DNA of 64,000 bases from Haplodiscus bocki. Lineage: Eukaryota. The position numbers were made by a program, and so were the translations under genes. The notes under the pieces are model-generated. The model made no database searches, was not told the DNA's origin, and was given only the letters and a program-made list of their open reading frames with translations. Shown here piece by piece: positions 26,045 through 63,490 of the stretch. Position 1 is the stretch's first letter; the number at the start of each line of letters is the position of its first letter. The stretch spans positions 84,568,001 through 84,632,000 of the forward strand of contig OZ296656.1 of the NCBI GenBank assembly GCA_965655095.1, read 5' to 3'.

Positions 26045-26475
26045 CTACGAAAAAAAAATAATTTTCCCAGAGGTACTTCCCAACGTCATTTACCACATCG
26101 TCGCTTTTTAGCTTTCGAACATATTAAGTTTAACGACGAGAATCTTTGAAGCTGGCATTAAGATAAGGTCATTAAACTTGAAATCTATTCATATTAGACA
26201 TTTTGATTTAACAGATCAAAGATTTAACAAAATCCGATGGAGACCTTTTTCCGAATAGGAAAACTGAACGGAAAAAAATTCATTTTTTAGCATATCGGAG
26301 AAAACTTCGCATTGCTTTTTACTAGTTGTTCTTTAAAATGCTTCAAATGTACAAGAAGTTATATATCAACCAACTTCGCTCAACTTGGAAGATAATTAAT
26401 TCTACACGAATTATGGAATTAAATCCAAAAACGAGTTAAAAGCTAATAATCATCACTTCGAGAAGCTACTCTCAC

Positions 26476-27073
26476 TTGAGATCAGCATCGAGCTTGTTGC
26501 TTTCGAAGATAGGTGTCAATGATGGCAGTACTCTTTTCTCCAGCACCAGTTTGAACGAATTGTGGACCCCTTGCTTGATCGCTTGCTCCAAAGGGGGGTA
26601 AAACTGTGTTTGGATTCGACACAAAAAGTCAAGCAGTGTAATTGAAGTGGCCGGGTGATGTTTCAAGTTATGATACATAACTAAAATGGCTGGCTCTATA
26701 TTCATGATGTTATCTTTATCCAACTGAAACGTCAGCCAATCAAAAAAGAGAGCGAGTTTACACTCAGCTGCGATCGAATTGGATTTGCATTGGAGGAGAA
26801 GCCAGCCAATCACAGCCCAGCGAGGAATTACTTCGCTACAAAGAATCTCATTGGTTGGATGGATGACGCAGCAGATGTAGCGAATCAAATCAGGACAGAG
26901 GTTTTGTGACTCGGCAGTTGAAAGGTAAGATTTGTGGAACCAGTCCTGGTATCGTTTCTGGTTGCCAAATTTGACCTTGGACATGAGAAAGTTTAACTTG
27001 TTCTCCATTTCTGGAGTGAGACGAGCCGCTATGAATTTTCGCTGGCTTCTTGTTTGCAGCAAATTCAGCATTC
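26476..27073 (-). CDS. INTS3: Integrator complex subunit 3, coding exon 3
   Basis: [55 protein letters not shown] and [11 protein letters not shown] are INTS3/SOSS-A N-terminal-domain motifs. Acceptor TTTTAG, donor AA|GTGAGA. Confidence 0.96.
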
Positions 27074-27199
27074 CTAAAACATTTGCAAAGTTTTCAACCT
27101 GAACTTCGAATTAAAAGCGCACACGAACTTTTCAAGTACACTTATGATTTTGAACAGTAAGAAATTAAAGCACGATTTGTAGTTGTAAAAAATGCCATT

Positions 27200-30060
27200 T
27201 TAAACCTGCAGTAAACTCTTGGGTGAATTATTTCTACTTCAGACGAAGTCGCAAAAGGCGGCAAAACAGTTCTTTTCAAACATATTAACAAGCAGAGTAA
27301 ATCTTCATATTTCACAGAAATTACCGGTAATTTAGCGTTATAAGAATTAAATTTCGCTAAAAAGAATACAAAATATTTTTGATAAACTACTCATTCGATA
27401 TCTTCAAATGATAGGGATCGTTCAAATGATCAGCAATTGGCTCACTACTATTTCTGATCCGCTCTTTCGGCGAATTTTTTATAAAAAATCAGTGGTCTTA
27501 GTGAAATGAATTAACCCAAGTATTTTTCTTCTTCGCATTGACAGAAATGGTTCAAGTAGTGAATGAAGTACATCAATAAACCAGTATGCCGTATTGAACA
27601 ATTGGTTTCACATTACAAAAATAATACTTCAACAAAACTCTTCGCGGGACGTAATGTCGTATTTTAGATATCACGCCTGAATGCCTGGAAAGTTAGAATC
27701 TTCTATCTCTGACATGTTCACAAAACTTCAGATTTCCATCGACCAAAACTCCTAAATACTTACAATAATCATTTAATAAAGACTCATTTATTTCAACCAG
27801 CAGAGTTGAAGCACTCCTCTTTCTGTTAAAACAAAGTAAACTCGACTTGTCAACATTTACAGATAACTTATTGGAAAGGAACCAGTCACATATATTGGAG
27901 AGATCGTTTTAAAAACTTGCGGGAGACAAACAAACACTTGTAATGTTGGAATCGTCTGCAAATAGATACTTGCGAGAACTGAACTGTTTTAGTAATGTCA
28001 TTGATGTAAACCAGGAACAAAAGTGATTCTGAAACAGAACCCTGCGGAACTCCTGTTGTTATATTTGCCCATACGGCTGGACCTTTACCTTCTACAAACT
28101 GCATTCTATTTGATAGATAACTTTAAAACCATTTGTTTCCGATTCCTCTAACGCCGTGAGCCTCTAATTTGTCTAGCAAAATCGAGTGGTCTAGAGTGTC
28201 AAAAGCTTTTTGAGCTCGATAATGCACTGATATTATGAGTCTCTTTAGAGCCCATACGAATAATTTCCGTTAATTTAGCCAGTGAATCTATAGTGCAATG
28301 TTTCTTACGGAAACCAAAGTGTTTGTCGTACAGAAGATTATATTTTTCCAAATAGTTATTGAAACGTCTCATCACCCGCTGATAAATTTTACTTATCGAC
28401 AATACAAGAGAAATAGGTCTGTAGTTATTCATATCCTTGAAGCACCCAGATTTATAAAGGGGTATAACTTTAGCATTCTTTAGCATGTCATGATACACTC
28501 CAGATTCCAAAGAAATGTTAACAAGTTCTGCAATGAAAGGAGCAATTGCCCTTGCACAACTTTTGAGCACTACTTTAATAATGTCTGGACCAGATAAATG
28601 TTTGCTTTTGAGCTGTTGAATTACTTTTAGGCATTCGTTTTCGTTTGTTCTGAAAGAGTACATTGATTGATGTGCACGCTGGTCTGTTTTCGGTGAGTTC
28701 TTCACAGGAAGAGACTGAGCTAAATTCGGTCCAACAAACAAAATGATGATTGAAAGCATTGGCAATCTCCGTGTAGTCATATACTTCATACCTGTCTACA
28801 TCTAAGCTACTCAATTGCCTTGACTGAAACCTGTTACCAGTAACTTCTTTTAGTACTTGAAAAACTTGCCTCGAGTCTCCAATAAAGCTCGCGAATTTCT
28901 TGTAGTAGAAACTTTTCTCGGCAAATCTTATCGGTTGATCAACTTTTATTCTTTGCATCAAGAAAGAGTCTGTTTTCCGCGCATTTTCCTTAGCTTTTAT
29001 CCACAGTCGGTGCAACTTGTTTCTTTTATTTATCAAAGTCTTCAACTCTTTATTAAACCAGTCAGCAATAATTTTCGATCGAGATAACTTTTTTCTAAGC
29101 GGTACGAGTTTATCAAAAACCTCAGTAAACGCGCAAAGAAACCTATTGTAAGCCAAATTTGCGTCAAGATTCTACGCATTGATAACATTTATTAGGTTCA
29201 GCTATCAGCTTGTTTTCGAACTCAATTGAATTTTCCGACCTGAATCATTGACCCCTCCCCTTCGATTGATTCGACAACTAGTAATGACTCCATTGTATGC
29301 TGGTATTAGATATGGAACATTGTTATCACTATTTTCCAACCAGGTTTCAGAAAAGCACAAGATGCGAGGCGGGAGACCCGAGGCAACTGAAGTGCTTCTT
29401 CATCTGCATAATGTTTTTTAATGACCGTACATTCAACGAAAGCACCTTGACTGATAATAAAGAGGGATTGGAGGGTTTCACAAATTCATTTAAATTTTTT
29501 CTTTTGCCCTTCTCATGTTTACGTTCCTTCTTGTTGCTGTGCCCCACCGAAAACTCAAGTAAAACATTTCATCACGTTGGTCAAAGAATAGTCCATGAAG
29601 GACCCGCCCTCAAATAGTCGTCCAATTTTGTAAATCTTTTTGTCTTGTTTCTACACAAAAAAGATTGTGCCATCCCTTGTCCATACAGATTCTACCATGT
29701 CGTCACTTCTCATCAGTTTGATGAAATTCATTCATGGTCTCGTAATGCCTTCGTAAATCTTGACATTTAATCCACTCAAACTCACTAGTTTCTTGTTCTG
29801 TAACAACGTTATTTTCGCAACTAATCGGGAAAAACGCACTATGACTGGTTTCAGATGAATTCGCGAGGGTTACAACACTACGTCGGGTATTGTTTGGCAT
29901 ATCCATTATGGTGTGTGTGGGTGGGGTGGGTTAAATCAACGGTCTTATTCCAAATTTTTTTCAAGACTTGCAGCTTGAACACCGGAAAATCATCTTATTT
30001 CGCTTCTCAACACACCGGAACCCCGTCTGAACAACACACAAACGCCTATCACGCGAAATG
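27200..30060 (-). mobile_element. Decayed APE-RT LINE (CR1/L2/Jockey group) in INTS3 intron 2; boundaries approximate
   Basis: Fragments VLSLNVRSL (APE start), AKVIPLYKSG...NYRPISL...FGFRKK, GVPQGSVSESLLFLVYIND and PIVQYGILVY, with many frameshifts. Confidence 0.88.
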
Positions 30061-32282
30061 AAAATTGTAAGAAGCCAAGACGTCCACAAGTCTTCAATAA
30101 CTTTTTGTTTTACAAGAACTTAAATTTCGACTTCTGCAGCTAATTTTATATTTTTCAAAAGAATTATATTGACCAAACGATCTATCGACCACAATTTTGA
30201 GTTAACACCTCAACAGAATTACACTGACTCCTTTTCGATGTTTCAACGTAGTTGTAGTAGTTTTTCATCAAAGTCTCCGAAAGAAAACATCCGAAAACTT
30301 CCAGGACTTGGTGTAAGTTTGTTGCTCAAAAACAGTATATCATCTCAACCCAGTCTGCGAAGAACTGAATTCTCGTCTTGAAAAGATAAAGCCAAGCAAG
30401 CCAAAGGACTCCAACGTAAACTTTGAGAGCGATCAGAGACAATCCTAGAATTAACTATTTTTCTACTTAAGCAAGGGGCTGTGATCTTTACGGCTTTGCC
30501 AATTTCAAAACGTTTCATCCGAACAATTTAGCACTCAATCAACATCAATTTGTTGAAGCTGTTCCACATAAATAACTTCAAAAAAAGATCACGTTTCGCT
30601 AGATTTTGTTCATTTAAAACGAAAAAGTAAAAAGTTTTTTTCTCTGAAATCAATTCATTCTGCTCCCTTTAGAACCCCAGATCATCTGCCATCAATTTCC
30701 AATGAAATCGATATTAGAGTCAAACGAAGGAGCCCAACATGAAACTTGAGATAGGTTAGACAATCAAACACCTACAGGATATGCAACCTAAATTTCGAAA
30801 CTTCGACATTCCTTATTATTTTGCTCCTTTCGAAACGGCAAATCTTAAAACCCCAGCGTTCAATCGGCCTTAAATGTGCTTTCATTTTCTAAACGCTAGT
30901 ATTGAACTTTATAGGGTTTCTGTAGGGCTCTGCCACTTCTCATCGGTGTCTTGAAAATACTATGTCCGAAAGAAAAACATCGGCATCAAGGATGCTGGGC
31001 ATTAAGCGCTAAGAATTTAAAATATTAAAATGGATTTCAGCAATTTTAGCATGAAAGGGTGGATGACTTTGAGAAAAAAGAATATGCTAACTAACAAATT
31101 TGAGAACACTTGAATCAAATACCTGTCCTTAAGTCGAAGATTGAATAGATTAAATAATCAGTTCGCTTTAGCTCAAGAAAGAGATGAAAATAAATGTGTA
31201 TGGAATAAGAAGCAAGAAATTTTCCAAGTCACTGTATCAGCCGGCCAGTCACGTGGATTTGCAAAGTGCTAAGAAAAAAGTAAAGCCTACAGGCCTTTCG
31301 CTTATGATCTTCATGCCTAAAAACAAATTTCCGAACTTTGATTCTGTTTTGTTCAATTAAAAATCTCATTACTACTACTCGTTTATTAACGACCTCAATT
31401 CTTGTGTGAATCACTTCAAAAAGACCCGATTCAAAGCTTTGTGGTATCACATAGGATCCAATAAATTTTCTCACTCAATTACGTAGAATAATTGTTACTT
31501 ATACCATAAATTTGCTATTTTCCAAAGCGGCATAATATTGGCAACTGAATGTTCAATAGACCTGCATTATGTTAGCTCGTTAGAAAGGTCTGTACTCCTG
31601 TCGGGTGTCTAGGGCCTTCGATTAGTTTTAATGGAGAGAATATTTCAGAAAAAAAGCACGTTTTCCAAAATTTGTGTGGTGCTTCAATGTTCTCAGAACC
31701 ATATATTTTCTCAATTCGGTTATCAACAAAAATTAGTCGCATGGTCAAAATAAGAAGAAAAACGATTAATAGCTTTGTGAATAATTTTCTGAATCTTTGT
31801 TTAATAGATTAAGGCATCAAAAAACTTCTAAATATGACCTGTTTGAATATTTATATGAATCAAATGTCAACGTAGATGAAATATGGACAAAAACTGGCGG
31901 ATAACTGAAGGATTTCACGAAAGTTCGAAAATGTAGAGGGAAGCCGAAAACTCAAAACATAGTAAGCTGGCACAATTAGCGGATACATGACGGATTAACA
32001 GTGGCTGCTAAAAGAGGGATAAATAGAAAAACGGATAATCGAGAGATAAATCGGAGATATCACGAAATTTGCCTCTCAAAAAAGTTTGTCATATGCAACA
32101 CTTTCAAATTTGCTATGATATCTTACTTTTGAAAATATATATACTCATACTTTGCCAATAATGCTACACGTTTTTCCATTTTTTAAGCAGCTGTTTTCGC
32201 AAAATATCGCAGTGCAACTGAGCCTCTTATTTCAATTTTCCAGGTTCCAGAACCAATCTCCGATTCAAAAGAAAAGTCTTAC

Positions 32283-32740
32283 CGTTAAACTTCGGGCTGA
32301 GTAAATGAGGTTGATAAAGAATGTCTCTCCAAAGTGTTTGGAAGTCCGGTATTGTGGCTACGTTCTGCAGAAGTCTCAATAAATCACGTCCAATGATGCA
32401 ACAGTCCATAAACTTGTCTCGAAGCAACGAAACGCAAAATTTGATTTCCTTTTGTCTCAGAGATTCAAACCTATTGGTACCACGATGATCGCATATTAGT
32501 CTGAGATACGTGTACAAAAAGATGCCCAGAATGAAGGAATCCGTTTCGTACAAGAGTGTCATTTTGTTCTCGATGAAGATGTCAAGTAATTTGTCTGCTA
32601 GCCAAACATTTTTGGCCGAAACGTCGCCACCTACAATGTTTTTCATGAGGCAGATGCAACATTGGTTTGCCCCAATGCATCGGCTTTTGACAAGTTGGTT
32701 CACAAACCAAACGAGTTGCTCACGCGCCGTGTCTGTCAAT
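32283..32740 (-). CDS. INTS3: Integrator complex subunit 3, coding exon 2
   Basis: QLVWFV...GGDVSAKNVWLA...YTYLRLICDH...LRQKEIKFC...IGRDLLRLLQNVA. Acceptor TTTCAG and donor G|GTAAGA; phases match the neighbouring exons. Confidence 0.96.
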
Positions 32741-33014
32741 CTGAAACAGAATTAAGTTAACGTGAAGTTTCTAGTTTCAATTTTTTCCATAAAATTTGAT
32801 TTTTAGTTCCATCAGCAAAACGCATTGGCACTATACCATAAGTATCCTCAGGCACTTGAATTTTACAGCCTGCAATTTCTGAAGTTTTTCGGTAGTTCCC
32901 AAATTTCTCCAAATGTCAACAGATATTTTTCGAAACTCTAAACCAACAAGAAAATAACTCAAAATATCTCAACTGGCTATGTTGAAATCGTACTCGAGTC
33001 AAATCTCCACTAAC

Positions 33015-34430: not shown

Positions 34431-34587
34431 GTATTGAATTTGAATTTTTCAAACTCCGCATTACAAATTTTCGAAGCTGATTTTACGAAAATAAAAAATA
34501 TTTTTAGATTTTATTTTATTTTGCTTGATTTTAAAACCAAATTCTACTTTGGAAAATTAATATTTTTTGCGTTTTAGATGAGTTTTG

Positions 34588-36273
34588 ATGAGTTCCAGTA
34601 CTAGCGTTCAATCGATTTCTGATGAAATTACGGTAATTGAAAATCCAAAACTTCCAGTCGTTGAATATAGAGTCAATAAGAAGACTTCAAGCAATGTGTG
34701 CAAGTTATTTTTGCTGGAATTTAAGGACGATGTACAGACTGAGTGGCGAAAATGCATTAAATGTGATGCTTTGGTCAAGGCCCCGAATTCCGGAACAAGT
34801 GGTCTTTCAAAACATGCGGATTCCTGTGCAAAATCCAATAAGCGGAAAGCACCTACAAATCAGCCCAAGATTGGTTTTGAAAAATGTCCCAAGCTTAATT
34901 TGCCTAAAGGAATGGACACTGTTTCTAAGCTTGTGTATAAGGACAACATTCCTATTACAGCTGTTGCCAAAAGCGAAGCTTTACAAAGTATGTTTCGTGA
35001 ATTAGGATTTGGAAGCGTTACTTATCACTCTATGAACAAAGCATTAGATGAGAAATATCATTGCATTGTTTCAAAATTGAAATCAATTATTGAGTCGCGA
35101 AACAAGGAACAGCTTTTAACAATTACGTTTGACAAGTGGACCTCACAGGATGGGAAGAAGTTTATTGGTATATATTTATACGTTGATTTGCACGACATTT
35201 GTCTTGGTTTAATTCCTTATAAACACTTCTGTGGAGCGGAAGAAATTGCAACCTATCTTCGGAAACAATTAGCACTTTTTGGCCTTACCCCTAGTGACAT
35301 AAAAATTTCGGTTACTGATTGTGGAGCTGACGTACAGGCCGTTTCTGAGTTATTTGGTTGGTATTCATTTCCTTGTTTGGCGCATGTAGTTAATTTATGT
35401 GTTAAAAGAATTATTTGCGCAAACCCAGAATCGGATTTAATTTTTGACGAAAATGATGAAGACGATGAAGATCAAGATCAGGAGCGTGAAGTTGCTGTAG
35501 GCCAATTTCGCCATGTCATTGAGATTGTTCGGAACCTTTGCAAGAAGGTACATAGTTCAACAAAAAACGCCGAAGCCCTTGAAAAAGCACAGCTGGAATT
35601 TTTAAATAGTCAGAATGATGAACAAACAGACGGAGAGGTTGTCAGAAAATCACCATTAAAGATTATTTGCAGTAATGCGACGAGATGGAATTCAGTATTT
35701 GACATGTTGGTTCGCTTTCGAGATCTTAAACGATATATGCAAATTATGTTTGAAAATGATTTGCGAAACTACGACTGGGCAGCATTAGATAATATTATTG
35801 AGCTCCTTCTGCCCTTTAAGGAATGCACAATGCGGCTACAAGCAAAGGATGCATCTGTTCATACGGCTAAAAACATAATTTTATATCTTCAAGCACGGGT
35901 AAGAAATTTGTCAATTGATGCTCAGTTAGTCTTGGATAAATGGCTAAATAGAAATGATATCGTTGAAGCTCTTCTGAAGAAGCGTGGAAGTTTCTTCGAC
36001 AAGGTAAAGGAGAAATTTATATACGAAGAGAACGCTCAAAACGATCATGGTTACAATCTTGGGACAGAAATAACATTAGCTGATTTTGAACGTCGAATAT
36101 GTGCAGATGACTTTAGAGTTGAAGCCTATATGATTACATTTAAACCCGCCAGTGTTGACCCAGAACGCCTATTTTCATTGTGTAGATATTCTAAGAATTA
36201 TTTACAATGTCGTATGACTGCTGCACATCACGCCAGAAACGTTTTCTTGAAGAAAAATGAAAAGTTTCTCTAA
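34588..36273 (+). CDS. hAT transposase with BED zinc finger
   Basis: CIKC...GTSGLSKH (BED finger), TFDKWTS and VTDCGAD (catalytic Asp residues), CLAH (CxxH), TRWNS and PASVDPERLFS (catalytic Glu). The true start could involve a 5' intron, since a TTTTAG acceptor lies at ~34577. Confidence 0.93.
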   Translation: MSSSTSVQSISDEITVIENPKLPVVEYRVNKKTSSNVCKLFLLEFKDDVQTEWRKCIKCDALVKAPNSGTSGLSKHADSCAKSNKRKAPTNQPKIGFEKCPKLNLPKGMDTVSKLVYKDNIPITAVAKSEALQSMFRELGFGSVTYHSMNKALDEKYHCIVSKLKSIIESRNKEQLLTITFDKWTSQDGKKFIGIYLYVDLHDICLGLIPYKHFCGAEEIATYLRKQLALFGLTPSDIKISVTDCGADVQAVSELFGWYSFPCLAHVVNLCVKRIICANPESDLIFDENDEDDEDQDQEREVAVGQFRHVIEIVRNLCKKVHSSTKNAEALEKAQLEFLNSQNDEQTDGEVVRKSPLKIICSNATRWNSVFDMLVRFRDLKRYMQIMFENDLRNYDWAALDNIIELLLPFKECTMRLQAKDASVHTAKNIILYLQARVRNLSIDAQLVLDKWLNRNDIVEALLKKRGSFFDKVKEKFIYEENAQNDHGYNLGTEITLADFERRICADDFRVEAYMITFKPASVDPERLFSLCRYSKNYLQCRMTAAHHARNVFLKKNEKFL

Positions 36274-36994: not shown

Positions 36995-39000
36995 ATTTAC
37001 AGATGACAGCAATAGCATTGAATGAAAGAAGCACATGATTTCCTTTCATAAGAATTAAGGAAATAATTCCAAAAAAGAGATTTCAACAGGGGTTTGACTT
37101 TTTCACATGGATCATAGAAATTTATATTGTGTTTCATTGAAACGAAGTTCGCAAGTCTCGTTGCTCGATGGATGAAATTTGAATCTGTCAGTTTGTTTTG
37201 TTTTTTGGAGCTTGAAAGGAGGAAAACTAGTTTCGCGGAGGTTTTGTCGAGGTGCTTTAGAAGGCTCTATCAGGGACCGAACTTCAGGGCCAAGCTTTCC
37301 ATTCAGAACCTTGTTGAAGGTTAGTAGATCCTCTAACTGAAACAGAAGAGACAGTGGCAGAATGTTGCTTTGAATAAGACGCTCTTTATACGTGTCATAT
37401 GAAGTTATCCAACGCGTGACTCTACTTTGGAAACTTTCCAACTTTTCCAAATTAGTTCTGTTTGCGAACCAGAAAGTGGTTCCATTTAAAATCAAGGGCC
37501 TTAAATAAAGAACATATACTGAAGCTTTCTGACTGGTGGATAGATTATTTGGCAAGTTTCTTTTGATGGAGATGAATCTACCATGAGCTTTACAAACTTC
37601 CGACTTGATATGCTCAGTCCAGGACAGATTATAACAAAAACTTATTCCCAAATCAAAAACTGGCTTTCGAGTAAAAGAAATGTATTCTCCACCAAAAACA
37701 CATAGAGGTTGTTCTTTAATGTCCTTTCTCTTCAGTGTGAACCATATTAAACTTGTTTTGCTGAAATTGAACTGCATTTTATTTTCCAAGGACCATTGAT
37801 GTAGTCTAAGAAGATCATTCTGAAGCAAGGCTGGATCTGTATTGTTGATTTTTGTGTCATCGGCAAAGAGATAAGCAATAGAGGTTTCAAGCACATCCGG
37901 AAGGTCATTAATAAAAACCAAAAACAGCAGAGGCCCAAGCACAGAACCCTGTGGAACTCCACTGTTTATAGGCAAATACTCGGAATAGATGTTATTTATG
38001 ACCGTCCGCTGAGATCGATCTTCTAGATAGGATGATAGAAGTTGCAAAAGTTTCCCACCAATGCCGAAAGTTTTAAATTTTTCAATTAGCAGGTAATGAT
38101 TCACTTTATCGAAAGCTTTGCAGAAATCGATATATAGTGTAAAAACTTCTTCGCCTATGTCAAGAGAGTCGTGTAGTAACTTTAAATGCAATAGTAGTTG
38201 ACTAGTTGTTGAGCGGTTCTTCATAAATCCATGCTGTGAAGAGTTTATTTTCGGTGCAATAAATTTATATAGGTGCTTGAAAAGAAGCCTCTCAAAGCTC
38301 AATGATAGCCTCGAGACTGGCAACAGGCCAATAATTGGATATAATGTTCTTTGCTCCATTTTTATGCAGAGGCTTCATATCAACTAATTTCCAGTTATCA
38401 GGATATTTCGCAGTTTCCAAGATACTTCTGGCCAAGCCAAAGAAATGTATACTCAATGGAGTTGCAAGTTTCCGAACGGTTGCGCCTGACATGTTGTCAG
38501 AACCCATACCATCACTTGTTTGAAGAAGCGTTTCAATGACTTCTTCAAGTGAGAATTCAATTTCGTTCAGAACAGAAGGAGGGAAGTCTCTGTATTGTCT
38601 ATCGCATGTTGTGAACTGACTTAGGAAGAAAGTATTGAATTCTTGCGCAATTTCCGAAGGTCCAATAAACTGGTTATTGTTATGAAACATTTCATTCGGG
38701 AACTGATCTTCCATCCGAAAAGATTCGATAAGTTTGTAAATATCGTTCACTTTGGTATTAAATTTGAGGAAATTTTCGAAAAACAGTTGTACGTCCAGTT
38801 CAATTGACTGCAAAAGAGTTCTCTTAATCACGAGGTACTTTGATTTGACAAACTCCCTTCGCATCAAGGTTAAAAAGCAATTCATGAGGTGAGTCGTATG
38901 TGACGAGAAATAATTTGGTAAAGACTGGCGATATAATTTTTTGTTTCTGATATAAACCAGCAAAATTTGATGCAAATTCCGAAACCAATTCTGAGAATAG
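36995..39000 (-). pseudogene. LINE A ORF2, 3' part (linker, reverse transcriptase, C-terminal Cys cluster); frameshifted
   Basis: ORFs 38292-39020 and 37112-38359 carry RT motifs; frameshifts at ~38335 and ~37180. Confidence 0.9.
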
Positions 39001-39064
39001 CAAGTTGATGTTTTTGACATTTCAATCGGAAACTATTTAACTTATTAAATAGTTTCCGATTGAA

Positions 39065-39949
39065 ATGTCAAAAACATCAACTTCGACGTCGAAATGTGGA
39101 TCTTGCAAAAGAGTGGTGAAAGGTGGCGACCCCTCTGGCATTGCCTGTGACAATTGTAGTGTCTGGTATCATGGATATTCATGTGCTCGGCTCTCACAAA
39201 AAGATGTCACTGTGATGGGCAGAGTTAGTGGTTGTCTCTGGATCTGTAGCTCTTGCAGAGACAATGATGCCTTCAAATCCGAAGCTAAGTTCAATTCCTT
39301 ACTTGCTATCAAAGAGCTGAAAACTTCGATGAATTCAGTACAAAACTCTCTTACTGAAATTAAGACGAAACTCGAGCCTGCGCGCGAAATAAATAAGCCA
39401 AAATATATTGAAACAGATCTTGTAAAAGACAATAAGTTACCCCCAAATGCTCCTTTTCAACTAAAATTTGACAATTTAGCTGAAGCAAACGTTGAGCAAG
39501 TTTCGCCTGAAAATCGAGCTTCTGCGATATTGAATCATGAAATGGATGCTGTAAATGAAGTCTTAACTCACCTTGAAGAATCCCCGCAAATAATGGACAT
39601 AAAGCGCCTAGGAAAATTTGTAAGAAATAAAGAAAGACCGCGCGCAGTTATACTCACCTTATCATCAGCTTGGGATGTTCGGAAAATTTTATCAAAGGCT
39701 CCAAAAATAAAAAACTTTCACAAACCAATTTTCATTAATAGGATGCTATCCCCAGAAGAAAAATTGAATGAAAATCGCATTCTGCAAATACGCAGAGATC
39801 TGCTAAACCAAGGCATTGAAAGAAGTTTAATCAAAATTAGAGATCTTAAACTTTTTGTTGACGGCAAAGAAATTGACCTATCTGATTATGCAATTCTGAA
39901 AAACCAAGCAGCTGTTTCTGCAACAAACCAGCTACCTGAGAAAAACTGA
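39065..39949 (+). CDS. LINE B ORF1 protein (PHD finger, coiled coil, RRM-like region)
   Basis: CGSC...CDNC..WYHGYSC...WICSSC is a PHD finger; IKRLGK...RPRAVILTL...IFINRML is typical of L2/CR1-type ORF1. Confidence 0.9.
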   Translation: MSKTSTSTSKCGSCKRVVKGGDPSGIACDNCSVWYHGYSCARLSQKDVTVMGRVSGCLWICSSCRDNDAFKSEAKFNSLLAIKELKTSMNSVQNSLTEIKTKLEPAREINKPKYIETDLVKDNKLPPNAPFQLKFDNLAEANVEQVSPENRASAILNHEMDAVNEVLTHLEESPQIMDIKRLGKFVRNKERPRAVILTLSSAWDVRKILSKAPKIKNFHKPIFINRMLSPEEKLNENRILQIRRDLLNQGIERSLIKIRDLKLFVDGKEIDLSDYAILKNQAAVSATNQLPEKN

Positions 39950-42854
39950 CTATTTCAGTATGATGTATTTCTATTCAACTGCCAAAGTCTGATTAATCTT
40001 GACAAACGACATCAGTTATCAAACCTAACAGCAAGAGAAGATTTCGATATTCTCATGCTTACCGAAACCTGGACAACAACTGACTTTGCTGATGCTGAAT
40101 TCTTCCTTCCAAAATATGCCATCTACAGAGCAGAAAGAGATATACCGGATAATTTAAAAAAAAAAGATAGAGAGTCAGCCTACATGGTGGATCAGCAATC
40201 GCTATCAAAAGAAATATTCCTCACACAAATATTCCTTTTACTTCGGATTATCTGCGACAATCAGCTGTTTTTGTCCTTATTGACGCTGGATCATGCTCAA
40301 TTGCGTTGATTGTAGTCTATAACCCTCCCTCAAATAGTAAATATCGAGCATCTATTAATGAGTGGATCACGCTTCTTAATTTTATAGAAAATCACAAAAC
40401 TGACTACCATATACTAGGTGGTGATATGAATCTTCTAAAAACCAATTGGAATATCAATGAATCTGCTGATGAATATGAAAGATTATTCATCAATGAATTT
40501 GAGCAACGAAACTATATTCAATTGGTAAACCTTAATACCACCAGAAGCAGTATTCTTGATCTCATATTGACCAAAGATCCTGAAATCTTGCAGTCTATAA
40601 TTGAATGCAACTCTGTCATGTCAAACGGTCCCAGCTCAAATCACTCTTCTATCCGATTTAGTGTTTGCATTAAAAGCAATCATAAATACTACAAGAATAT
40701 CACTAATCACAGGAAAGTGTATAGTTTCTCTAAATGTGATTTTAATGCTTTGGCTTCCCTCATGATAGAAACTCCATTCGTACCTAAGTGTTTTAGTAAT
40801 TGTGACAAAAATATCGAAGAATTTTACTCTTGGATATATCAACTTATTGAACAGGTTACGCCAGTAGGAACATTGCATCGTTCGTCCTTAGCACCTTGGG
40901 TCAGCAGTTCTACATCACATCTAATCAAAAAATTTAATACAGTTGTGAAACGTCTGAAAACTAAACCGTGCAACACTCTTTTGATTAAAAAATGTAGCTT
41001 ACAGGCCACATTATCCGATGAATTACGCAAAGATCTGTGTGAATATCAGCAAACTATTTTTGCTACCAAAAAAACTCAAGCAAAATGTTTCGCCACTTTT
41101 GACAACTTAAACGTGAAGAAATATCTCCAGGTATTTACAGAGATATCCCGAATGACAGGAAATGGGCTGAGGATGATAAAGATCGAGCTAATTTGTTTTG
41201 TGAATATTTCAGCAGTGTTAACAAAACTGATAGAATGACTAAAACTCCTGAATATAGCAACCCTGGGAATACAGTAATCAGGATCACAAAGACTGAAATC
41301 TATAAAACATTAAAAAAACTCAATGTGAATAAAGCAAAAGGTCCTGATGAACTTCCAGTCGCATTGTTCAAAAACACCGCAGATGCTATTCAACACCCAT
41401 TGTATAGCATCTATCGAAATGTAGCCGGTCTGGGAGTTTACCCAGAAACGTGGAAGCTTACATTAGTAGTTCCCGTATTCAAAAAAGGTGATAAAAAATT
41501 TGTTGAAAATTATCGCCCTATTAGCCTGCCGAACACCACTTCAAAAATTTTTGAAATAAAGGTATACAACCAGCTGTTAGCAACGTATTCCCCACATTCA
41601 AACGACTTACAGTATGGCTTTAGAGCGAAACGATCACCTGTGCTAAGATTACTGAAGACTTTATCCCATATATATGAGAAATGGACAAAATCTGAATGCA
41701 TTGCGCTCTTCCTGTTTGATTTTAAACGAGCTTTTGATAGCATAGACCACGTAATTCTGATGAAAAAGCTCCAGCGACTTGGGTTATCCTCAAAATTTTA
41801 CTCACTGCCTACATCATACATCACAGACAGGAAAATAATGGTGAAAATCAATAACGCCGCTTCAAAAGTGGAAAAAATCAACTGCGGTGTAGCACAAGGT
41901 ACCCTTATTGGTCTTCTTTGCTTCATTATCTACATCGATGACTTACCAAATGAATTGCTCTATTTATATGCATATCTTTTTGCCGACGACCTATCTGGTC
42001 TATATATCGGATCCTGCTCTCAATCATTTCTTCTCAAAAACGACCTCATGAGCTTGCAAATTTGGAGTGAAACCCGCTTTTTACTTTTCAACTCAAGGAA
42101 ATGTCACTATCTCTTGCTCAAGGGACAGCTAAATTTTTCACCTGAAATATACTCTGAGGAAATTGCTGAGTGTACTCGAAATACTGACCTGGGTCTGGTG
42201 GTAAGTAACAACCTCAAATGGACTGCTCATATAGAAACTAAGCTTGCAAAGGCAAACAAAACATTCCATATGTTGAAGAGAAATGTCAGCAAATCTATTT
42301 CGCAATATTCAAAACTTCTCTTGTACAAGAGTACAATTATCCCCCAACTTCTCTATGCATCAGAGTGTTATTCCTTATCAAGAATGGATGTCAGAGCTCT
42401 AGAGGCCTTCAACAAGAAAATCACCAAATGGATGTGCTATTTAGATTCCTACAAAGACAGATTATCTCACCTGCAAATTTTGCCTTTGACATATTTCATG
42501 GAGATGAAAGAAATTATTCTGTTATCGGGTATTGTTACACACAAATATGATGTATATTTTGATTCCAATATCGTTATGAAATATGGGCGAAATGAAATAC
42601 AGTTCTACTTACCTCAAATATCCTGTGAATTATTGCGTGACAATTTCTTTTATCGTGCCTGTTATCGAGCTAATGTCCTTTCCAAACCCTTGAACATCAC
42701 CGACAATGAAAATATCAAAAAGAAATTACTTAACCAAATGTGGAAAAAATTTGTTGAACAATATCAAGAAAACAACATCTGCTCATGGTACTTTGTTTGC
42801 CTATGTGTAACGTGTAGGAGCATCCACAGAAGACAGATGATCATGAATGCATAA
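39950..42854 (+). pseudogene. LINE B ORF2 (APE endonuclease and reverse transcriptase), two frameshifts
   Basis: LFNCQSL, LTETW, VYNPP, GGDMN, ILDLIL, NYRPISL, FDFKRAFD, GVAQGT, LFADD and C-terminal CLCVTC. Frameshifts fall in A-runs at ~40160 and ~41070. Confidence 0.92.
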
Positions 42855-42977
42855 ACTATTGAAGCCTGATTCGACAGATATTTCAAGAGCAACAACAACG
42901 GAAACTGTTATCAATGAACTCATTTAATGGGAGCAGTCCCCTCGCTTTGGGCGTAAATTCAGTATATATATATATAT

Positions 42978-43803
42978 AATAGAAAAGATCAGCTGTTGCA
43001 TCTTGAAAAGAAAAAAGACTGGTTGAAAGATCGAGTTTCAAATACTCAAGCCTCTCTGGACTCAGGACGAGCCTACTTCTGGAATTACGCATCATACCAT
43101 CGACCGGAAGTAAATGTTGTGTTGAGAGTGTGAAGTGCAGCAAAGCATGATCAGAGTGGTCACAAAACTCTGACTCGATGGAGACACAAACTTGAAAGTT
43201 GCAAAGAAAAACGTCCAGGGTATTCCCAGACTTATGAGTAACAATGTCTACATATTGGCTAAAGCCATTTGTCAATAGAAAGGAGGATAAAATAGGATAA
43301 TTGGGAATATCATGGAATGGTAAAGATGACCAATCAAATCCAGGAAAATTGAAGTCGCCAATCAGAAATATTTTGTCGTCAGTTGACCAGGAGTATTGCC
43401 GGAGAGATTCTTGTATGAAATTCGTCAGCCGGACATCAGAGATCCGGTATTCACTGCTAATTGGCGGGTTGTATATCAGCAAGAATAGAATACCTTCAAT
43501 TACTGTAGAGCAACCACAGTCAAACTGAGATGTTAACGTAGTAGACTTGCTTGGATCCCAACCAAACGCTGCTGTACCACCATGTATTCGCAAGCTTCTA
43601 TCGGAACGACAAATTTGAGCTGGAGTGTTGTTGGGGAAAACCACTGAACTTGTTTGACTATCGAACCACGTTTCAGTAACGAACAGGTAGCTACAAGTAC
43701 TCAACAAAAATTTATTGAGAACTTTCAGTCGTCTCTCAAGTAATAGAAGGCCTTGAGAATTTAGGTAAAATAGATTCAATGATAATTTGCAGAGAGTTGG
43801 TTG
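42978..43803 (-). pseudogene. LINE A ORF2, APE endonuclease domain
   Basis: YLNSQGL, VTETW, HGG, IYNPP, IGDFNFP, THKSGNTLDV and SDH motifs. Confidence 0.92.
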
Positions 43804-44615
43804 TCAATCAAGCTTCACCTCTATCTCGCCTGAAGACGTGGATTGGTAAAGCCTGAACTTTTGTATCCGAAGGTCTTCTTTCCTTATTCCAGAATTCATT
43901 AACTCCCATCGTTTTTCAATACTACTTGTTCTTTTCTCACGTCTGCCTCTGACAGGCCAGGCGTGATTAGAATACGTGAGTTTTTGTACAATTCCTTTTC
44001 AGAAGCCTTTGCTACCAGCGCTCTGGCATCCCAGACAGAATTAAAGGTAACGAGCAGTTTTCTGGTTCTGCCATCAACAAATTTCCCAATGCGTCTGCAT
44101 TCCTTAATCGGATATGTACATCCGATTGACGAGCAGACGTTCTCAACTTCTTCTTTATCTTTGAACTGACGTTTGATTCGACTTGCTTCATTGTTTTCTG
44201 GAATCCCACTTACTCGGACCTCGTATTGGTATTCTTCAATATTTTTTGATGGAGATACCTTTTCTACATTTTGTATTCCTTTTTTAGCGGACAGTTCGAT
44301 AGGCGGAATTTTCATAATGGAGGTTTGTAAGTCATTAGCAATAGAACTTAGCTTTCGAGTTTGTTTGGCCAGTTCCTCGACTGCTTTCGTCTGTGGAAGA
44401 CAAGAATCGCAGAACCAGCGGCAGTTTGATATCCTCCCCAGCACGCTGATGTCATCGGAAGAAAGAGACACGCAGGCGCCATGGAACCATCTGCTGCATT
44501 CATCGCACATGATACAAGGATCCACGTGCTCTGCTATTTCCCCCTCACATTGGCCACATCTTGAGTGTTTTGCTTTGTCATCAGAGACACTCGCTTTTGC
44601 TCGTTTTGGAGGCAT
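43804..44615 (-). pseudogene. LINE A ORF1 (PHD finger), one frameshift at ~43912
   Basis: CGQC...CDEC..WFHGAC...WFCDSC. The post-shift frame RWELMNSGIRKEDLRIQKFRLY aligns with LINE B ORF1 RRDLLNQGIERSLIKIRDLKLF. Confidence 0.88.
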
Positions 44616-45599
44616 CGAAAGATCTGAAGTTGACTTATTAAACAGCCGAAGCTATTTAATAAGTTTATCACAACAATTAGGCTAAGCACTACACCTAAGC
44701 ACAACATCTAAGTGGACCCTCCAAAGCTTAAGCAGCCTGTCAAGGAGAGCCCCAAAAACAACACTTTCTAATTTTCTGTCCCGCAAAGGTTTTTCTCCGA
44801 AAACAAAGATAATCATAGTTTTTCTGACCAATGTTTGAACATTTTGGTGTTTTGTTCTGCGTTCCGGTATTGCACGTTGGCCTGATGAAAAATTGATTGG
44901 AAGTACTCCCCGGCATGTCAAGAAGTTATCTGGAGAATATGTTATTTGAGGGACTTGCACTTTGCCTATACATTAACACCCGAGTAAAAGTAGAGATTTC
45001 AGTAATCATTCACGGAAAAATATTCAAACGACCATTTGAGTACAACTCATTGACAAAGTCCGAAACGATTTTCAAAAAGTCCCTAACATTAACTTGAAGG
45101 ACAGTCAGTCCATTTTTTATAACGATGAGGAAGTTAGTATTATCAGTTTTCTTCGAAACAAAAATTTCGCAAAAATTTTTCATGCGGGTTGAAAACTGAA
45201 TAAAGGTTATTGCAGGAAAAGCTTCTGTAGATTAAAGTCTGTAAGATAACTCGGGTTCTAAAAAGTTTAATACGAATATTCAAAAAAGCACGTATCACAT
45301 AATAACGCATTGTGGAATGTACATGAATTTGTGGGGGCAATTTTTTAACACTTTCGCAATTATAGAAATTAAATTTACAACCTGTGACAACTTTCACGTT
45401 CATTCATTTGACAGTTTCGGGGTCCGTGAGTATTTTTTCGTCTGAAAAAAAAACTTTCAAAGTTTGAGTGTGACTAATTGTGTCTGGGTAAAATTTGAAA
45501 GCAGCTTGTTCTAAGCATACCAGGAGATAAATTTAGTTGGTTCGTCAATTAAAAATTTAAAAACAGTTATTGTAATCGGACAAAAAATTGTATCATCCG

Positions 45600-54531: not shown

Positions 54532-57500
54532 ATGAATACATGTGAATATAAAATTAAAGTTTTACAATTGAATAAAAACATTTCAATAAATTAATGCTAT
54601 AAAATTTGCAATATAAACGGAATAATAAATATAACCATGACTTAACCAACACACATCTTGCAACAAATAACCAATATTATTGTCAACAGTGTAAAAAAGT
54701 AATAAACCTAGCAGATAAAAGATTTCATTTACAATCAAATGAACACAAAAACAGTAAAAGAATGTGGTATTGTGAGGTATGTAAAAAGGATATAATTATT
54801 AATACCAAATCTTCTCACATCAAATCTGCAGCACATATAGAAAATGAAGTTATTTCTAGAATAAATATTAATCTTACAGATAAAACATATACATATATCA
54901 ATCCAGATTTTGAAAAAGTAGATAATTTAGTTAAAACAGCTATTGATGATTGTACAAAATACTTTCATAGATTTAAACATAAATGTGTATTTATTGTGAA
55001 ATTTTATCATGCAACACATGGTACTACAAACTATTTTACAATAACAAATAAGTTTAAAAATCAATATGAAAAATTAAATGAAGCAAATGAATTAGATCAC
55101 CAAATAGATGAATTCGAACAAGGAGAAAGTGGTTATATATTTGATAGCATAAAAACATTAACATTAAAAATGTTTAAATACCATGATATAAGAGCATCTA
55201 GCTATTGTAAATTACCTAAATCGTTTTGTAATTCAAAATCTATAGTAAACATACAAAACAAGGACAACTATTGCTTTCTATGGTCTATTTTAGCTCATAA
55301 ATATAAGGTAGATAATCATCGCGAAAGAGTGTCACATTTTGAAAATCATTTTCATGAACTAAATCAAGGTGATATTCAATTTCCTATGAAAATAAAAGAT
55401 ATACCAACATTCGAAATATTAAACAACTTAAACATAAATGTCTTTGAATTATCAGCTAATGACAAATCTCTTTCACCCAAATATGTTATCAAAAACTATT
55501 ATGATGAACAGATAGATCTACTACTTTATGAAAACCACTACTGTTTAATAACTAATTTACATAACTTTTGTAGGAATAATGAAAACTATACACATTTATG
55601 TAGAAGATGTTTAAACACATATGGAGACCAAACAAAACTTGAAGAACATGTGTTAAGATGTATTGAGCAAAAAGTTTGTAATATATCATATATGCAACCC
55701 AATCAAAAGATAAAATTTAATGACTGGTATATGAAAATAGACCCACCAAAGTGGATTGCGGTTGATTTTGAATGTATGAATATCCCTATTAACAATAACA
55801 ATAACAATAACGATAATGTTAATGTTATTGATCACAATAACAATGGTGTTACAGTTAAGATGTTTGTAAACAAACCAGTTGCAATAGGTTATAATATAGT
55901 CAAAAATTCTGATTATGATAACTTAAATTTGGAAAAAGATGGCTATATCAAATGTTTTGTTGAAGATTGTGTTGAATGGTTTATAAATGAGATGTTGGAA
56001 ATGGAAAGCTATATGAAAATTTATTTTAAAAATGAACTCGAAATTAATCTTGATACAATTCCGGAAAATTATGATCAAACTACTTGTTGGTTATGTGAAA
56101 AAGAATTTAAACCTAAAGATATAAAAGAAAATCCAATTGTTAGAGATCATTGCCATTTAACAGGTAGATTTAGAGGCTTAGCTCATAATAATTGTAATCT
56201 GAATACACGAAAAGCACATACTTCATTTGTACCAATATTATTTCATAATTTTTCAGGATATGATTGTCATCTAATCTTTGAGAAATTAGTTAATATGGCC
56301 ACCGCAAAAAACATTAAAATGAATGAGAATGATATTAAAGCTAAATCATCAGAAAATTATATATCTGTTAAACTAGGATGCTTAAAATTTTTCGATAGTT
56401 ATAGATTTTTAGATGCTAGTCTGGACAAATTGTCTCTAACGCTAACATATTTTCTATCTCTAGATAAAAACGATATGGAAGATGATTTGTTCAAACGAAA
56501 ACTTGCTTATCCATATGAAAAAGGTAAAACCATTGAATCATATTACAAACCATTGAAATTAGGTAGAGAACACTACTTTTCCACTTTAAAACAATCATAT
56601 CCAGATTTCGAGGAAATAATAAGAACACAAGCTATTATTGTAAAAAATAAGATAACTAATTTAAAAGAATTAACAATGTTATATCTGAAAAATGATGTGT
56701 TATTAGTAACAGATTTTTTTCCAAAATTATATAGACACATGTAAAAAAGCCCATGGTATTAATCCATTATATTCTTATTATACACCATCATTTACATGGA
56801 AAGCTGGCTTGAAAATGACTGGAGTATAATTAGATTATATAACTGATGATAAACTCAGATTATTACTTGAAAACAATATGAGAGGAGGACCAAGTGCTTG
56901 TATGGGTAATCGCTATGTAAAAAGAGGAGAAAGAAAGATATTGTACGAAGACTTAAACAATCTTTATGGATGGAGTATGTCTCAATATTTACCAACTGGA
57001 GATTTTCATGAAATAAAAGTTACAAGAAGCAGTTTAAAAACAATTTTAAGAACTCCAGATAAGGACGAACATGGATTTTTAATAGAATGTGATCTAGAAT
57101 ATCCATCTAGCACACATGAAAATACAAAACTTTTTCCATTTTTACCTGAGAAAAAAACAATAAAAGTAGAAGATTTTTCACCTTATATGACGATAAACAA
57201 ACCAGAAAAAATTAAACCTACAGAAAAACTGATTTTGGATCAAACAAACAAACAGAGATATTTTATACATTATAGAGATTTAAAATTTTATTGTAAGACA
57301 TGGAATTAGAATTTTAAATTTACACACTGTTTATAAATTTAAACAATCTTCTTTGCTAGCAAAATATATTAAATATAATAGAGAACAAAGAGAAAAAGCA
57401 AAAACCGAATTTGAAAAACATTTTTACAAATTAATGAACAACATCTTTTACGGAAAAACGATTGAAAAAATCAGAAGACGATTGAACCTCGATTTGATAG

Positions 57501-58204
57501 ATAAATCAGATATCCCCAAAATATTAAATCGACAACCAAAGTTATCTTTCGATGACAAAATTGCCGAATATGATAAATTTAATTTGTACACATTTAATAA
57601 GGAAACTATCAAATTTACAAAACCTATTTATGTTGGATTTTGTGTATTAGAATTATCAAAACTCTTAAAGTATGAATGGTAATATGACAAAATGCAACCA
57701 TTTTTTGGAGAAGATAATCTGGAATTACATTATTTAGATACTGATTCCTTCATATTTTCTTTCAAACCAATTAAAAGCTTGATTGAAGATCTAAAATATT
57801 TTAAAGAGGATTTCGATTTTAGTGATTTGGATCCATCTCATGAACTATATTCAGAAGCTAATGAGCAAGTTATTGGCAAAATGAAGCTTGAAACAGCTCC
57901 AGAGTTAGATTTAGATGAAGGAGTATTTTTAAGGAGTAAATCTTTTTCTCTTAATATTAAACAAAACAGTTCACATTGTAAAAACAAAGGCGTCCAAGAT
58001 CATAATAAATACACTTTAGAAGATTATAAATATTGTTTAGAGAATAATGAAATTAAATATGGTGTTAACTATTCTTTTAGGAGTAATAAACATGAAATTA
58101 CATTGGTAAAACAAAAAAAGATAGCATTAAATACATTTGATGATAGAAGATGTTATATTGATATATATAATAGCATACCATGGGGTCATAATCCTACCTC
58201 ATAA
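54532..58204 (+). pseudogene. Protein-primed family B DNA polymerase with N-terminal zinc fingers and an endonuclease VII-like insert; disrupted
   Basis: DNYCFLWSIL, VRDHCHLTGRFRGLAHNNCN, FHNFSGYD, YPYE, RGG, DLNNLYGWSM, KLMNNIFYGKT and YLDTDSF. Frameshifts at ~54610, ~56720 and ~57295; stops at ~56827 and 57680. Confidence 0.93.
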
Positions 58205-58242
58205 CTGAGTTAAAAATTGAATAAATTTATAATAATTTGTAG

Positions 58243-58848
58243 ATGGCACTCTTTAACGATGTGTTTTGTCAAATCTGTGATAGATTCTATACAAAAGAAC
58301 GATGGAATAAACATCTCTATTCTAGTAGACATTTACGTAGAGAAATCAATGGATATTGGCCAGCATTTTTTCCACAACGAAAGCTAACTAGAGACGAAGG
58401 TATTAAACTTGAGAAAGCTTTTTGGGAAGTGATTCTCACCAGCAATGGCAATGATTTAGCATTGTTTGATTTTTTAAAATTATATTTTAGAATGTGTACT
58501 AATATAACAAACCATGTTCCAATTCGTTATTGGGATTATTATGATGATGGAAATGAAGAAAAACAGTGGGGTTATCGATACAAAGATGATATGATAGCTC
58601 AATTTAAACAAGATATATATAACAAAAATTACACTCTTCAAGATCAAGGCAAAGATGACCCAATTGATACTCTCGAGAACAGAATTAAATTTTGGATTAT
58701 TATTATTACCAACGATCAAGGTCCAGTACCTGATAACCTTTATGACTATGATTATAACGATGAAGGATTGGATTCAACTGTTCGTGGTTGGGAAATATTT
58801 CCTGAGATTGGAGAATTAAAAAAATTATTGGATATACTCAAAAAATGA
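58243..58848 (+). CDS. Polinton accessory protein with an N-terminal C2H2 (U1/matrin-like) zinc finger; function unknown
   Basis: Intact 201-aa ORF between polB and integrase; CQICDRFYTKERWNKHLYSSRH. Confidence 0.75.
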   Translation: MALFNDVFCQICDRFYTKERWNKHLYSSRHLRREINGYWPAFFPQRKLTRDEGIKLEKAFWEVILTSNGNDLALFDFLKLYFRMCTNITNHVPIRYWDYYDDGNEEKQWGYRYKDDMIAQFKQDIYNKNYTLQDQGKDDPIDTLENRIKFWIIIITNDQGPVPDNLYDYDYNDEGLDSTVRGWEIFPEIGELKKLLDILKK

Positions 58849-59012
58849 ATAAGTATATTCACACATATTAATGTATGTATGCACTATAATTACTCATATA
58901 ATTGTATGAATACACAGTTATAAATGTATGTGTGTGCAATCAAAATTACTCGTATATTTGTATGTATTCACAGTTATATTTACTCATGTAATTGTACGTT
59001 TACAAAATACAA

Positions 59013-59870
59013 ATGACTCAGAAAAACATTAAAATATTTATAAACGAAATCTATTCAAAAGGACCGAAACGAAACTATGCTACAAATAAAACAGACGTTT
59101 ATCATATCGATGACACCTGGTCTCTTGATATATTAGACCTCAAAGATTATGTTCCTGAAAACAACAGAGGATACAGATACGTTATAGTAATCATAGACAA
59201 TTTTTCAGAATTTGGTTGGACATTTCCTCTCAAAAATAAAAATACTCAAACAATAAAAGACTCTTTCGAAACTATTTTAATAGGCTCAAAAAGAAAACCA
59301 AATTTAATCGAAAGCGATCGTGGTAAAGAATTTTATAATAATATTTTTCAAGACTTCTTAAATAAAAACAACATTAAACTCTATTCTAGAAATAGTTCAT
59401 ATGGTGCTGTTTTTGCAGAAAGATTTAATCGTACTATCAGAGACCTTCTTAAAAAACCTGTTTTCGAAAAAGGTGATGTTAATTGGATTGATGTATTACC
59501 TACAATAACGAAACAATACAATAATAGAACACATTCATCGACTAAGTTGACGCCAATTCTAGCTAGTGTAAAAAAGAATGAAGGTTATGTTTACAAAAAC
59601 TTATTAGACAAACGAAAGAAAATTGAACCAAAGTTTCAGATAAACGATCTCGTTAGAACAGCAGATTTAAAGAAAACGTTTTCAAAAGGAGATACGACTA
59701 ATTGGTCTTATAAATTGTATAAAATTACAGAAATAATTAATGATACAATACCAAGTTATAAGATAGATAATTTAAAAGAAAGGTATAATGAATCGTTATT
59801 AAAAAAGACTGATTTAACCTTAAAAGAGAACAAAGATGTTATGAAAAAATTAAAAATTGATATTGTATAA
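59013..59870 (+). CDS. Retroviral-like (rve) DDE integrase of the Polinton
   Basis: WSLDILD / IESDRGKEFYN / FAERFNRT catalytic triad, YNNRTHSST and FSKGDTTNWS; open frame. Confidence 0.95.
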   Translation: MTQKNIKIFINEIYSKGPKRNYATNKTDVYHIDDTWSLDILDLKDYVPENNRGYRYVIVIIDNFSEFGWTFPLKNKNTQTIKDSFETILIGSKRKPNLIESDRGKEFYNNIFQDFLNKNNIKLYSRNSSYGAVFAERFNRTIRDLLKKPVFEKGDVNWIDVLPTITKQYNNRTHSSTKLTPILASVKKNEGYVYKNLLDKRKKIEPKFQINDLVRTADLKKTFSKGDTTNWSYKLYKITEIINDTIPSYKIDNLKERYNESLLKKTDLTLKENKDVMKKLKIDIV

Positions 59871-60034
59871 TTACACTTATTCAAAAATGAATAAACATAT
59901 AATTATAATTATATTTGTATGAATAATTTAACTTATTTGCGATTGTAATTGATCAATATAGTATAAATACACTTATTCAAATATGAATATTAGTATAAAT
60001 ATAATTATACTTGAATGAATACAATTTTTATCAC

Positions 60035-61286: not shown

Positions 61287-61341
61287 TTATATATAAAAAA
61301 ATCATAATAGCACATACTTACAATTATATTTGTGTACACTT

Positions 61342-62193: not shown

Positions 62194-62532
62194 TTAAAGC
62201 ACTTAAATTTTTATAAATACACTTATTCAAATACGAATAATAGTATAAATATTGTTATACTTGTATGAATAAATCGACTCACTTGTGATTGTGATTAGTT
62301 TGCTTAGTATAAAAACACCTATTCATACACGGATAATAAAATACGCATAAGTACTCATATGCTAGTAAGTATATCTCTGGTATACGTACAAATATAATTG
62401 TATCAAGTAATTATAAATAATGATCGATATTGTATAATTACACTTATTCGAATATAAATATTATTATAATTGTATGAATAATTTAACTTATTTTAATTAA
62501 TATTATAAGTGTATAACTTTTATTTTGTATGT

Positions 62533-63281: not shown

Positions 63282-63299
63282 TTAATAAACAAAACAATT

Positions 63300-63490
63300 G
63301 AACAGAACAGAACAGAACAATTCACTTATACACTGAACAGAACAATCCATATTAAACAGATCAGAACAGAACAGAACAGATCATAATAAACAGAACAGAT
63401 CATAATAAACAGAACAGTTCACATTAAACAGAACAGAACAGTTAACAGCTATTTGTAACAGAACAGAACAGAACAGTTAATATTGAACAT
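63300..63490 (+). repeat. Imperfect (AACAG)n microsatellite in a Polinton intergenic region
   Basis: About 20 AACAG/AGAAC units directly visible. Confidence 0.9.

Follow-up and report, generated by a model that had tools for sequence, protein, structure and literature searches.

A 64,000-nt stretch of Haplodiscus bocki DNA (contig OZ296656.1 of assembly GCA_965655095.1, positions 84,568,001 to 84,632,000, forward strand; hereafter the window) contains two long interspersed nuclear elements (LINEs), with LINE B on the plus strand nested in opposite orientation within LINE A on the minus strand. In both, the first open reading frame (ORF1) ends at a single TGA, beyond which the same frame continues into the endonuclease of ORF2. 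The junction between the two frames, its conservation in related elements and its possible translation are described here.

LINE B begins with the 3' tail of a spliced leader (39040..39052, plus strand), and the ATG at 39065 opens an ORF1 of 294 aa with a PHD finger (39065..39946, plus strand). ORF1 ends AAC TGA CTA TTT, with the stop at 39947-39949 (junction TGA CTA TTT, 39947..39955, plus strand), and the same frame runs on into ORF2 (39950..42854, plus strand), which encodes an apurinic/apyrimidinic endonuclease (APE) and a reverse transcriptase (RT) and is open over 967 aa in intact copies. The first in-frame ATG after the stop is at 40055 (codon 36), downstream of the Asn motif at codon 10, and two out-of-frame ATGs at 39960 and 39963, absent from the original prediction, open a short frame only. 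A short 3' untranslated region (UTR) and a (CAA)n tail follow (42855..42899, plus strand).

LINE A ORF1 (43807..44615, minus strand) carries a PHD finger and a C-terminal half that we take to be RRM-like, a label with no Pfam match behind it; 270 aa are open in intact copies, and the window copy has a 1-nt deletion at about 43916. It ends GAT TGA CAA CCA, with the stop at 43806-43804 (junction TGA CAA CCA, 43798..43806, minus strand), and the frame continues for 236 codons without a Met, the first being codon 237. The 5' part of ORF2 with the APE domain (42980..43803, lower limit approximate, minus strand) is in frame with ORF1, and the minus-strand RT at 37112..39003 is the remainder of LINE A, cut off by the nested LINE B and matching sequence that closely follows the junction in family A loci. 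LINE A starts with 31 nt (44652..44682, minus strand) identical to the acoel spliced leader printed in PMC9911081, which makes an acoel the most likely host. The original prediction, made from the window alone, had described both stops, the in-frame continuations and the first Met codons lying past the start of the endonuclease, and these readings hold.

Pfam matches to APE and RT were observed in both ORF2s (PF14529, PF00078), and to PHD (PF00628) in both ORF1s, above the curated cut-off for LINE A (E 3.5e-6) and below it for LINE B; the L1 endonuclease 1vyb was matched at E 2.4e-15. The two elements are far diverged, with 30% identity between the ORF1s and 27% between the APE regions. APE followed by RT in ORF2, dispersed copies, no long terminal repeat (LTR) and a short repeat tail, which among the families includes (CAA)n, (TAC)n and (TAA)n, are the features of an APE-type two-ORF LINE. 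The PHD-type ORF1, described as typical of the CR1/L2/Crack clades (PMC3708506), points to the CR1 group, the RT tree holding unnamed relatives and no named reference elements; the elements are probably CR1-group LINEs with two ORFs in an acoel-type host. In the window, both copies are dead. LINE B has lost one base at about 40162, which 23 other family B loci carry, and has a second frame break at about 41100-41240. Its 5' end shows an inverted duplication across 39005-39069, a pattern expected of twin priming or fold-back, in which a short inverted copy of the 5' end (about 39005..39037, minus strand) was seen in L001 and was absent from the other family B loci compared. A piece of about 80 nt with a TA run (about 42900-42980) lies between the LINE B tail and the resumed LINE A.

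The junction was retained among the copies of both families. For family B, 29 entries were compared, and since two lack the junction and L026 equals L028, 26 distinct loci remained; the in-frame TGA is kept in all 26 and is followed by CTA in 25. For family A, 30 of 40 listed matches were examined, with in-frame TGA CAA in 30/30 and CCA next in 28/30. The ORF1 frameshift of LINE A occurs in the window copy alone: each of the 29 others has one extra base at 43911-43917, which justifies the frame repair assumed in the original prediction. Within families, mismatches in the hexamer formed by the TGA and the next codon (15/1098, 1.4%) were modestly fewer than in the flanks (2.1% and 2.9%), a difference of little weight, given that copies decay neutrally once inserted and that those compared were chosen by score. 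Four family B copies (L010-L012 and L027) stand in tandem on contig C11 with a period of about 3.6 kb.

The 1.5-Gb assembly was then searched at the protein level with LINE B ORF1 and LINE B APE, each search returning 150 matches. From these, 80 + 60 matches outside family B were taken, limiting repeats of one family and blind to the junction, and six earlier loci brought the total to 146. An APE N-terminus was present in 143 of the 146, and these formed 25 clusters, or 24 families after L165 was merged into L155; from one family to another, APE sequences are 17-59% identical (median 29%, 22 families). The commonest junction is a single TGA followed by C in 23 of the 24 families. The 24th family (L238) consists of three decayed copies, of which one with TGA CTA was hand-picked as representative, and the unbiased count is accordingly 23/24. 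The 24 representatives read TGA CTA (20), TGA CAA (3) or TGA CTC (1): TGAC occupies +1 to +4 in 24/24, 21 have T and 3 have A at +5, and 23/24 have A at +6. No constraint is seen among them at -9 to -1 or at +7 to +21, so that only six bases are conserved, and family L203 has the same TGA CTA despite a different ORF1 C-terminus. Of 607 Leu codons counted in the ORF2s, just 17% are CTA, indicating that the constraint acts on the bases and not on the amino acid.

Counted per copy, the nearest in-frame stop is TGACTA or TGACAA in 116/143 and another TGAC in 2, the other 25 copies being shifted, truncated or mutated. Where 166 copies could be aligned over the site, 154 carry TGACTA or TGACAA, and the remaining 12 represent 12 different variants, each seen once. 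The background is low: of 820 out-of-frame TGAs, 1.5% have CTA and 3.8% have CAA as the next three bases (5.3% together). Of 15 ORF2 end stops found, seven are TAA, four TAG and four TGA, with TGA-C in 0/15. A second sample, chosen by the leader and not by homology, took the first 30 places on contig C1 with an exact leader match, and 19 of these loci had an APE match; 17 of the 19 read TGA CTA or TGA CAA and 2 are frame-shifted, and three families, judged by junction peptide, were added. A Pfam APE search of the genome brought up other elements for the most part: the top 30 loci and most of 20 more were outside the group, of a single ORF or decayed, and 2A-like peptides were present in several; one member of the TGA-C group (L097) was present, and nine loci were without the motif. 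Five of the single-ORF LINEs (L067, L069, L104, L107 and L108) belong to another clade and have 2A-like peptides ending NPGP before PHD and APE.

The junction is confirmed as a real and strongly conserved family feature that extends well beyond the window and is not due to chance; the common frame, the stop, the hexamer, the missing AUG and their conservation are direct observations. In intact copies ORF2 is at phase 0 relative to ORF1, and not in the overlapping -1 position of a -1 frameshift LINE. The spacer between the stop and the conserved Asn takes ten lengths from 9 to 26 codons, all of them in frame and stop-free. No Met occurs before this Asn in 22/24 families, so the downstream frame lacks a start of its own as at type II readthrough sites, and in 16 families none occurs before the conserved Glu, the other 8/24 having one. 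In an alignment to the L1 endonuclease, the Asn corresponds to its N14 and the Glu to its E43, residues that we presume to be catalytic.

As to the readthrough contexts named in the original prediction, the UGA C(U/A)A hexamer is general and the tobamovirus type is not. The type II motif, UGA then CUA or CGG, is represented by TGA CTA in 20/24 representatives; the type I motif, stop-CAR-YYA, is present in LINE A (28/30 loci) and family L155, and as the third CAA family reads CAA TCG, the full CAR-YYA is found in only 2 of 3 CAA families. With one frame across the families, no usable AUG for ORF2 in most, a stop and not a sense codon at the site in nearly all copies, and non-random bases at +4 to +6, the proposed production of ORF2 as a fusion by readthrough is supported at the level of sequence, and nothing found there refutes it.

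The 31-nt leader of LINE A has 1021 exact occurrences in the assembly, and its reversed control has 0. It heads at least ten families, with at least 19 of the first 30 matches heading LINEs of the TGA-C group, and sits from a few to a few hundred bases ahead of ORF1. At least 20 nt of it were found in 24/30 family A loci; in family B, a leader tail of at least 10 nt was found in 16/26 loci and of at least 20 nt in 1. Leader-bearing CR1 transcripts were already reported for Hydra (bioRxiv 10.1101/2024.03.13.584568). This distribution suggests that the LINEs are promoterless elements that depend on trans-splicing, the leader being returned to DNA when they are copied. Cap-dependent entry at ORF1 agrees with a leader in this position, which also brings in splicing as a rival explanation, considered below. 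In L199, L218, L292 and L295 a T-rich stretch ending CAG, like a second splice acceptor, directly follows the leader. An extra short ORF precedes the PHD ORF1 in L309-L311, L287, L293 and protein P0035, in L309 upstream of a family L203 element; its start motif presumably resembles an SGNH esterase.

We consider it likely that programmed type II readthrough of the UGA yields an ORF1p-ORF2p fusion. The host spliced leader would be added to the element RNA and ribosomes would initiate at the ORF1 AUG, most of them releasing ORF1p at the UGA. In a few per cent, a near-cognate tRNA would decode the UGA owing to the CUA or CAA that follows, and these ribosomes would go on in frame through endonuclease and RT, so that ORF2 would be produced within an ORF1p-ORF2p fusion in a constant, low proportion. 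A LINE needs far more ORF1p than ORF2p, and readthrough of a few per cent would suit this need. The readthrough itself, its rate, the inserted residue and the uncut state of the fusion are what we infer from the pattern described above. UGA-CUA is described as the type II readthrough motif, and CARYYA is reported to work after UGA as well (PMC3542737; PMC13517186); for human cells, values of 1.5% for UGA-CUA alone and up to 31% for UGA-CUAG are given (PMC4132726). Longer-length protein searches for natural ORF1-ORF2 fusions gave only two family A proteins, and another such search gave none. Among the best 150 ORF1 relatives, none exceeds 456 aa and four reach into the APE start, one of these being a table-4 reading of a stop-bearing locus. 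A Trp at the junction was dropped as evidence of fusion, since protein P0102 is locus L145 read under NCBI table 4.

Several points weigh against readthrough. The case is made from sequence, and the leakiness of the motifs was measured in mammals, plants and yeast, that is, in other hosts than an acoel. The families share ancestry, so the counts reflect retention and not independent events; in a quick tree with long branches from broken copies, from which L263 and L280 were left out, the TGA-C families lie on one side of a weakly supported branch (support 13), which allows a single origin and does not establish one clade. A general 3' RNA structure was not found, the mean folding z being -0.04 over +4..+103 and 0.31 over +4..+203. 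Values of z < -2 occurred in 2/24 and 1/24 families for these ranges, with 0-3/24 in controls; pseudoknots and longer-range pairing lay outside the test. Most type II viral sites have a 3' structure, a stem-loop from about +8 being common and not universal. An in-frame Met stands 1-3 codons ahead of the Asn in 2/24 families (L155 and L208), and a near-cognate start in 22/24. In the Candida element Tca2, the flanks of an in-frame gag-UGA-pol junction are reported to have failed to direct readthrough in yeast (PMC2194720), and an in-frame UGA thus need not be leaky by local context. Odon et al. (PMC3708506) argued that ORF1 functions need a separate product.

The near-cognate codons also favour the main rival, which we regard as unlikely. 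In it, ribosomes would terminate and then restart without an AUG, at the stop or shortly beyond it, in the manner of L1 or of stop-carry-on, the weak terminator retaining the ribosome and a free ORF2p being made. For L1 ORF2, reviews favour a restart that is unconventional and needs no AUG (PMC5972666; PMC5009743), and restart exactly at +4 would likewise preserve the frame. This rival gives no reason, however, for conserving the bases of readthrough signals, CUA and CAA not being near-cognate to AUG and yet being known stimulators of readthrough. Nor is a start position conserved, LINE B and family L248 having not even a near-cognate start before the Asn. If restart took place further down, the ten spacer lengths would not need to hold frame with the stop. 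No SART1-type AUG overlapping the stop in the ORF2 frame was found, the stop-overlapping ATGs of 6 families lying in another frame, and no conserved hairpin as in SART1 was observed. For Tca2, an internal promoter or a non-canonical bypass that depends on structure was left open; as a route to ORF2 here, either is highly improbable: beyond the Tca2 precedent, an internal transcript would be without an AUG before the Asn in the 22 families noted above, and the hexamer alone is conserved, with no shared structure.

Equally improbable is TGAC(T/A)A as a splice branch point, with cis- or trans-splicing removing the stop or yielding a separate ORF2 message. The host does employ leader trans-splicing, LINE B reads CTGAC and then TTTCAG, and a pyrimidine precedes the TGA in 16/24 families. 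The first AG is nevertheless at +6 in 8 families, too near for a branch point, and past the Asn codon in 7 families, LINE A included; a trans-spliced ORF2 RNA would still be without an AUG, and splicing gives no reason why the TGA is the in-frame ORF1 stop in every family. A family B copy compared with four contig sets of unrecorded type gave no joint and no indel, and such sets can show neither splicing nor its absence. Recoding of the UGA as selenocysteine, or a host that reads UGA as an amino acid, has a probability close to nil. It would account for a stop that is always UGA and for the Trp at the junction of library proteins P0001, P0102 and P0114; the Trp of P0102 is, however, the gene-calling artefact described above, 4/15 ORF2s end at TGA, and the junction site is a variable linker. 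For selenocysteine, moreover, the 3' UTRs of only about 25-65 nt before the repeat tail are presumably short for a selenocysteine insertion sequence (SECIS), no SECIS search having been made.

Related LINEs from other organisms were also compared. In a metagenome RT scan, 80 loci were kept, of which 51 were without an APE start, 2 ran off the contig and 27 were scored; viral contigs gave 5 weak RT matches. The CR1-like LINEs of the metagenome contigs have an RT 34-47% identical, and their ORF2 is often without an early AUG. In 17/27 scored loci (among L315-L388), ORF2 is in the -1 frame and overlaps an upstream frame that is at least 120 aa long, and these loci are candidates for -1 frameshifting. 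L322 reads TGA CTAG and is not independent, because it is 98.7% identical to a family in this genome and has the leader tail. L333, with an in-frame TAG CAA TAT and the first Met 118 codons on, is a possible independent case of readthrough. A broader picture, to which we give about an even chance, is an animal LINE radiation with a protease-free retrovirus-like plan. Its members would be promoterless and leader-capped, would make endonuclease-RT only as an uncut UGA-CUA readthrough fusion and would build the enzyme into the ORF1p particle on its own RNA, and the CR1 group would have switched among -1 frameshift, readthrough and 2A at the same junction.

Other features of the window lie outside the two elements. 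Positions 1-16000 show strong AT skew (about 0.39) and are tandem-array-like, and a further decayed LINE fragment with an RT region lies at 28199-29171 (minus strand). An intact 563-aa ORF at 34582-36273, which we take to resemble a hAT transposase, is apparently within or beside a host gene with exons in 26472-32751 (minus strand). A low-GC stretch at 54600-64000 contains ORFs, with the polymerase in pieces, that from the ORF list presumably resemble Polinton/Maverick-type protein-primed DNA polymerase, integrase, capsid and ATPase.

How ORF2p is produced from a two-gene LINE RNA is described as unresolved outside L1 and SART1 (PMC3708506). A six-base signal over about two dozen diverged families reduces the question to a short test, for which CUAG, CUAU, CUAA, CUAC and CAA are natural variants. 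If readthrough occurs, ORF2p would have ORF1p at its N-terminus, which would change models of particle assembly and cis preference; such ORF2s would be mis-annotated when begun at the first Met, and an early-branching animal would supply naturally occurring readthrough contexts in large number. The original prediction had regarded readthrough as unestablished for this LINE group. No paper on readthrough in animal CR1-group LINEs was found, most subscription papers and Repbase notes being beyond reach, but readthrough at a LINE junction has been proposed before, and the present case represents a variant of a known recoding mechanism.

The closest parallel is Group 3 of the Paramecium tetraurelia non-LTR elements, for which Guerin et al. 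(2017, PMC5405496) proposed readthrough at ORF1's stop codon from consensus sequences. It is likewise an APE-RT LINE whose ORF1 and ORF2 share one frame, parted by a stop; it belongs, however, to a ciliate clade where the reading of stops differs, whereas the present elements are animal CR1-group LINEs with a PHD ORF1 and a fixed UGA C(U/A)A over 24-27 families. The hexamer is that of the alphavirus type II sites (UGA-CUA/CGG) and of vertebrate UGA-CUAG genes (PMC3542737; PMC4132726; PMC13517186). As in type II viral readthrough, a polymerase lies downstream of a UGA in a leaky context, alphavirus P1234 being the cited parallel; here, no general 3' stem-loop was found and the host is a retrotransposon, known from its sequence. 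LINE A and family L155 share the CAA CCA after the stop with tobamovirus type I sites, where the stop is UAG and not UGA. Gammaretrovirus gag-pol and Candida Tca2 have the same order of structural gene, one in-frame stop and enzyme gene, but are LTR elements with a protease that cuts the polyprotein, and murine leukaemia virus uses UAG and a pseudoknot. Among LINEs, the junction solutions listed in reviews are restart (L1, SART1), frameshift and 2A (PMC5972666; PMC5009743; PMC3708506). Human L1 and silkworm SART1 resemble the present elements in a bicistronic APE-type LINE RNA with low-level ORF2, and differ in making a free ORF2p, L1 with a 63-nt spacer and an ORF2 AUG, and SART1 with UAAUG and a downstream structure.

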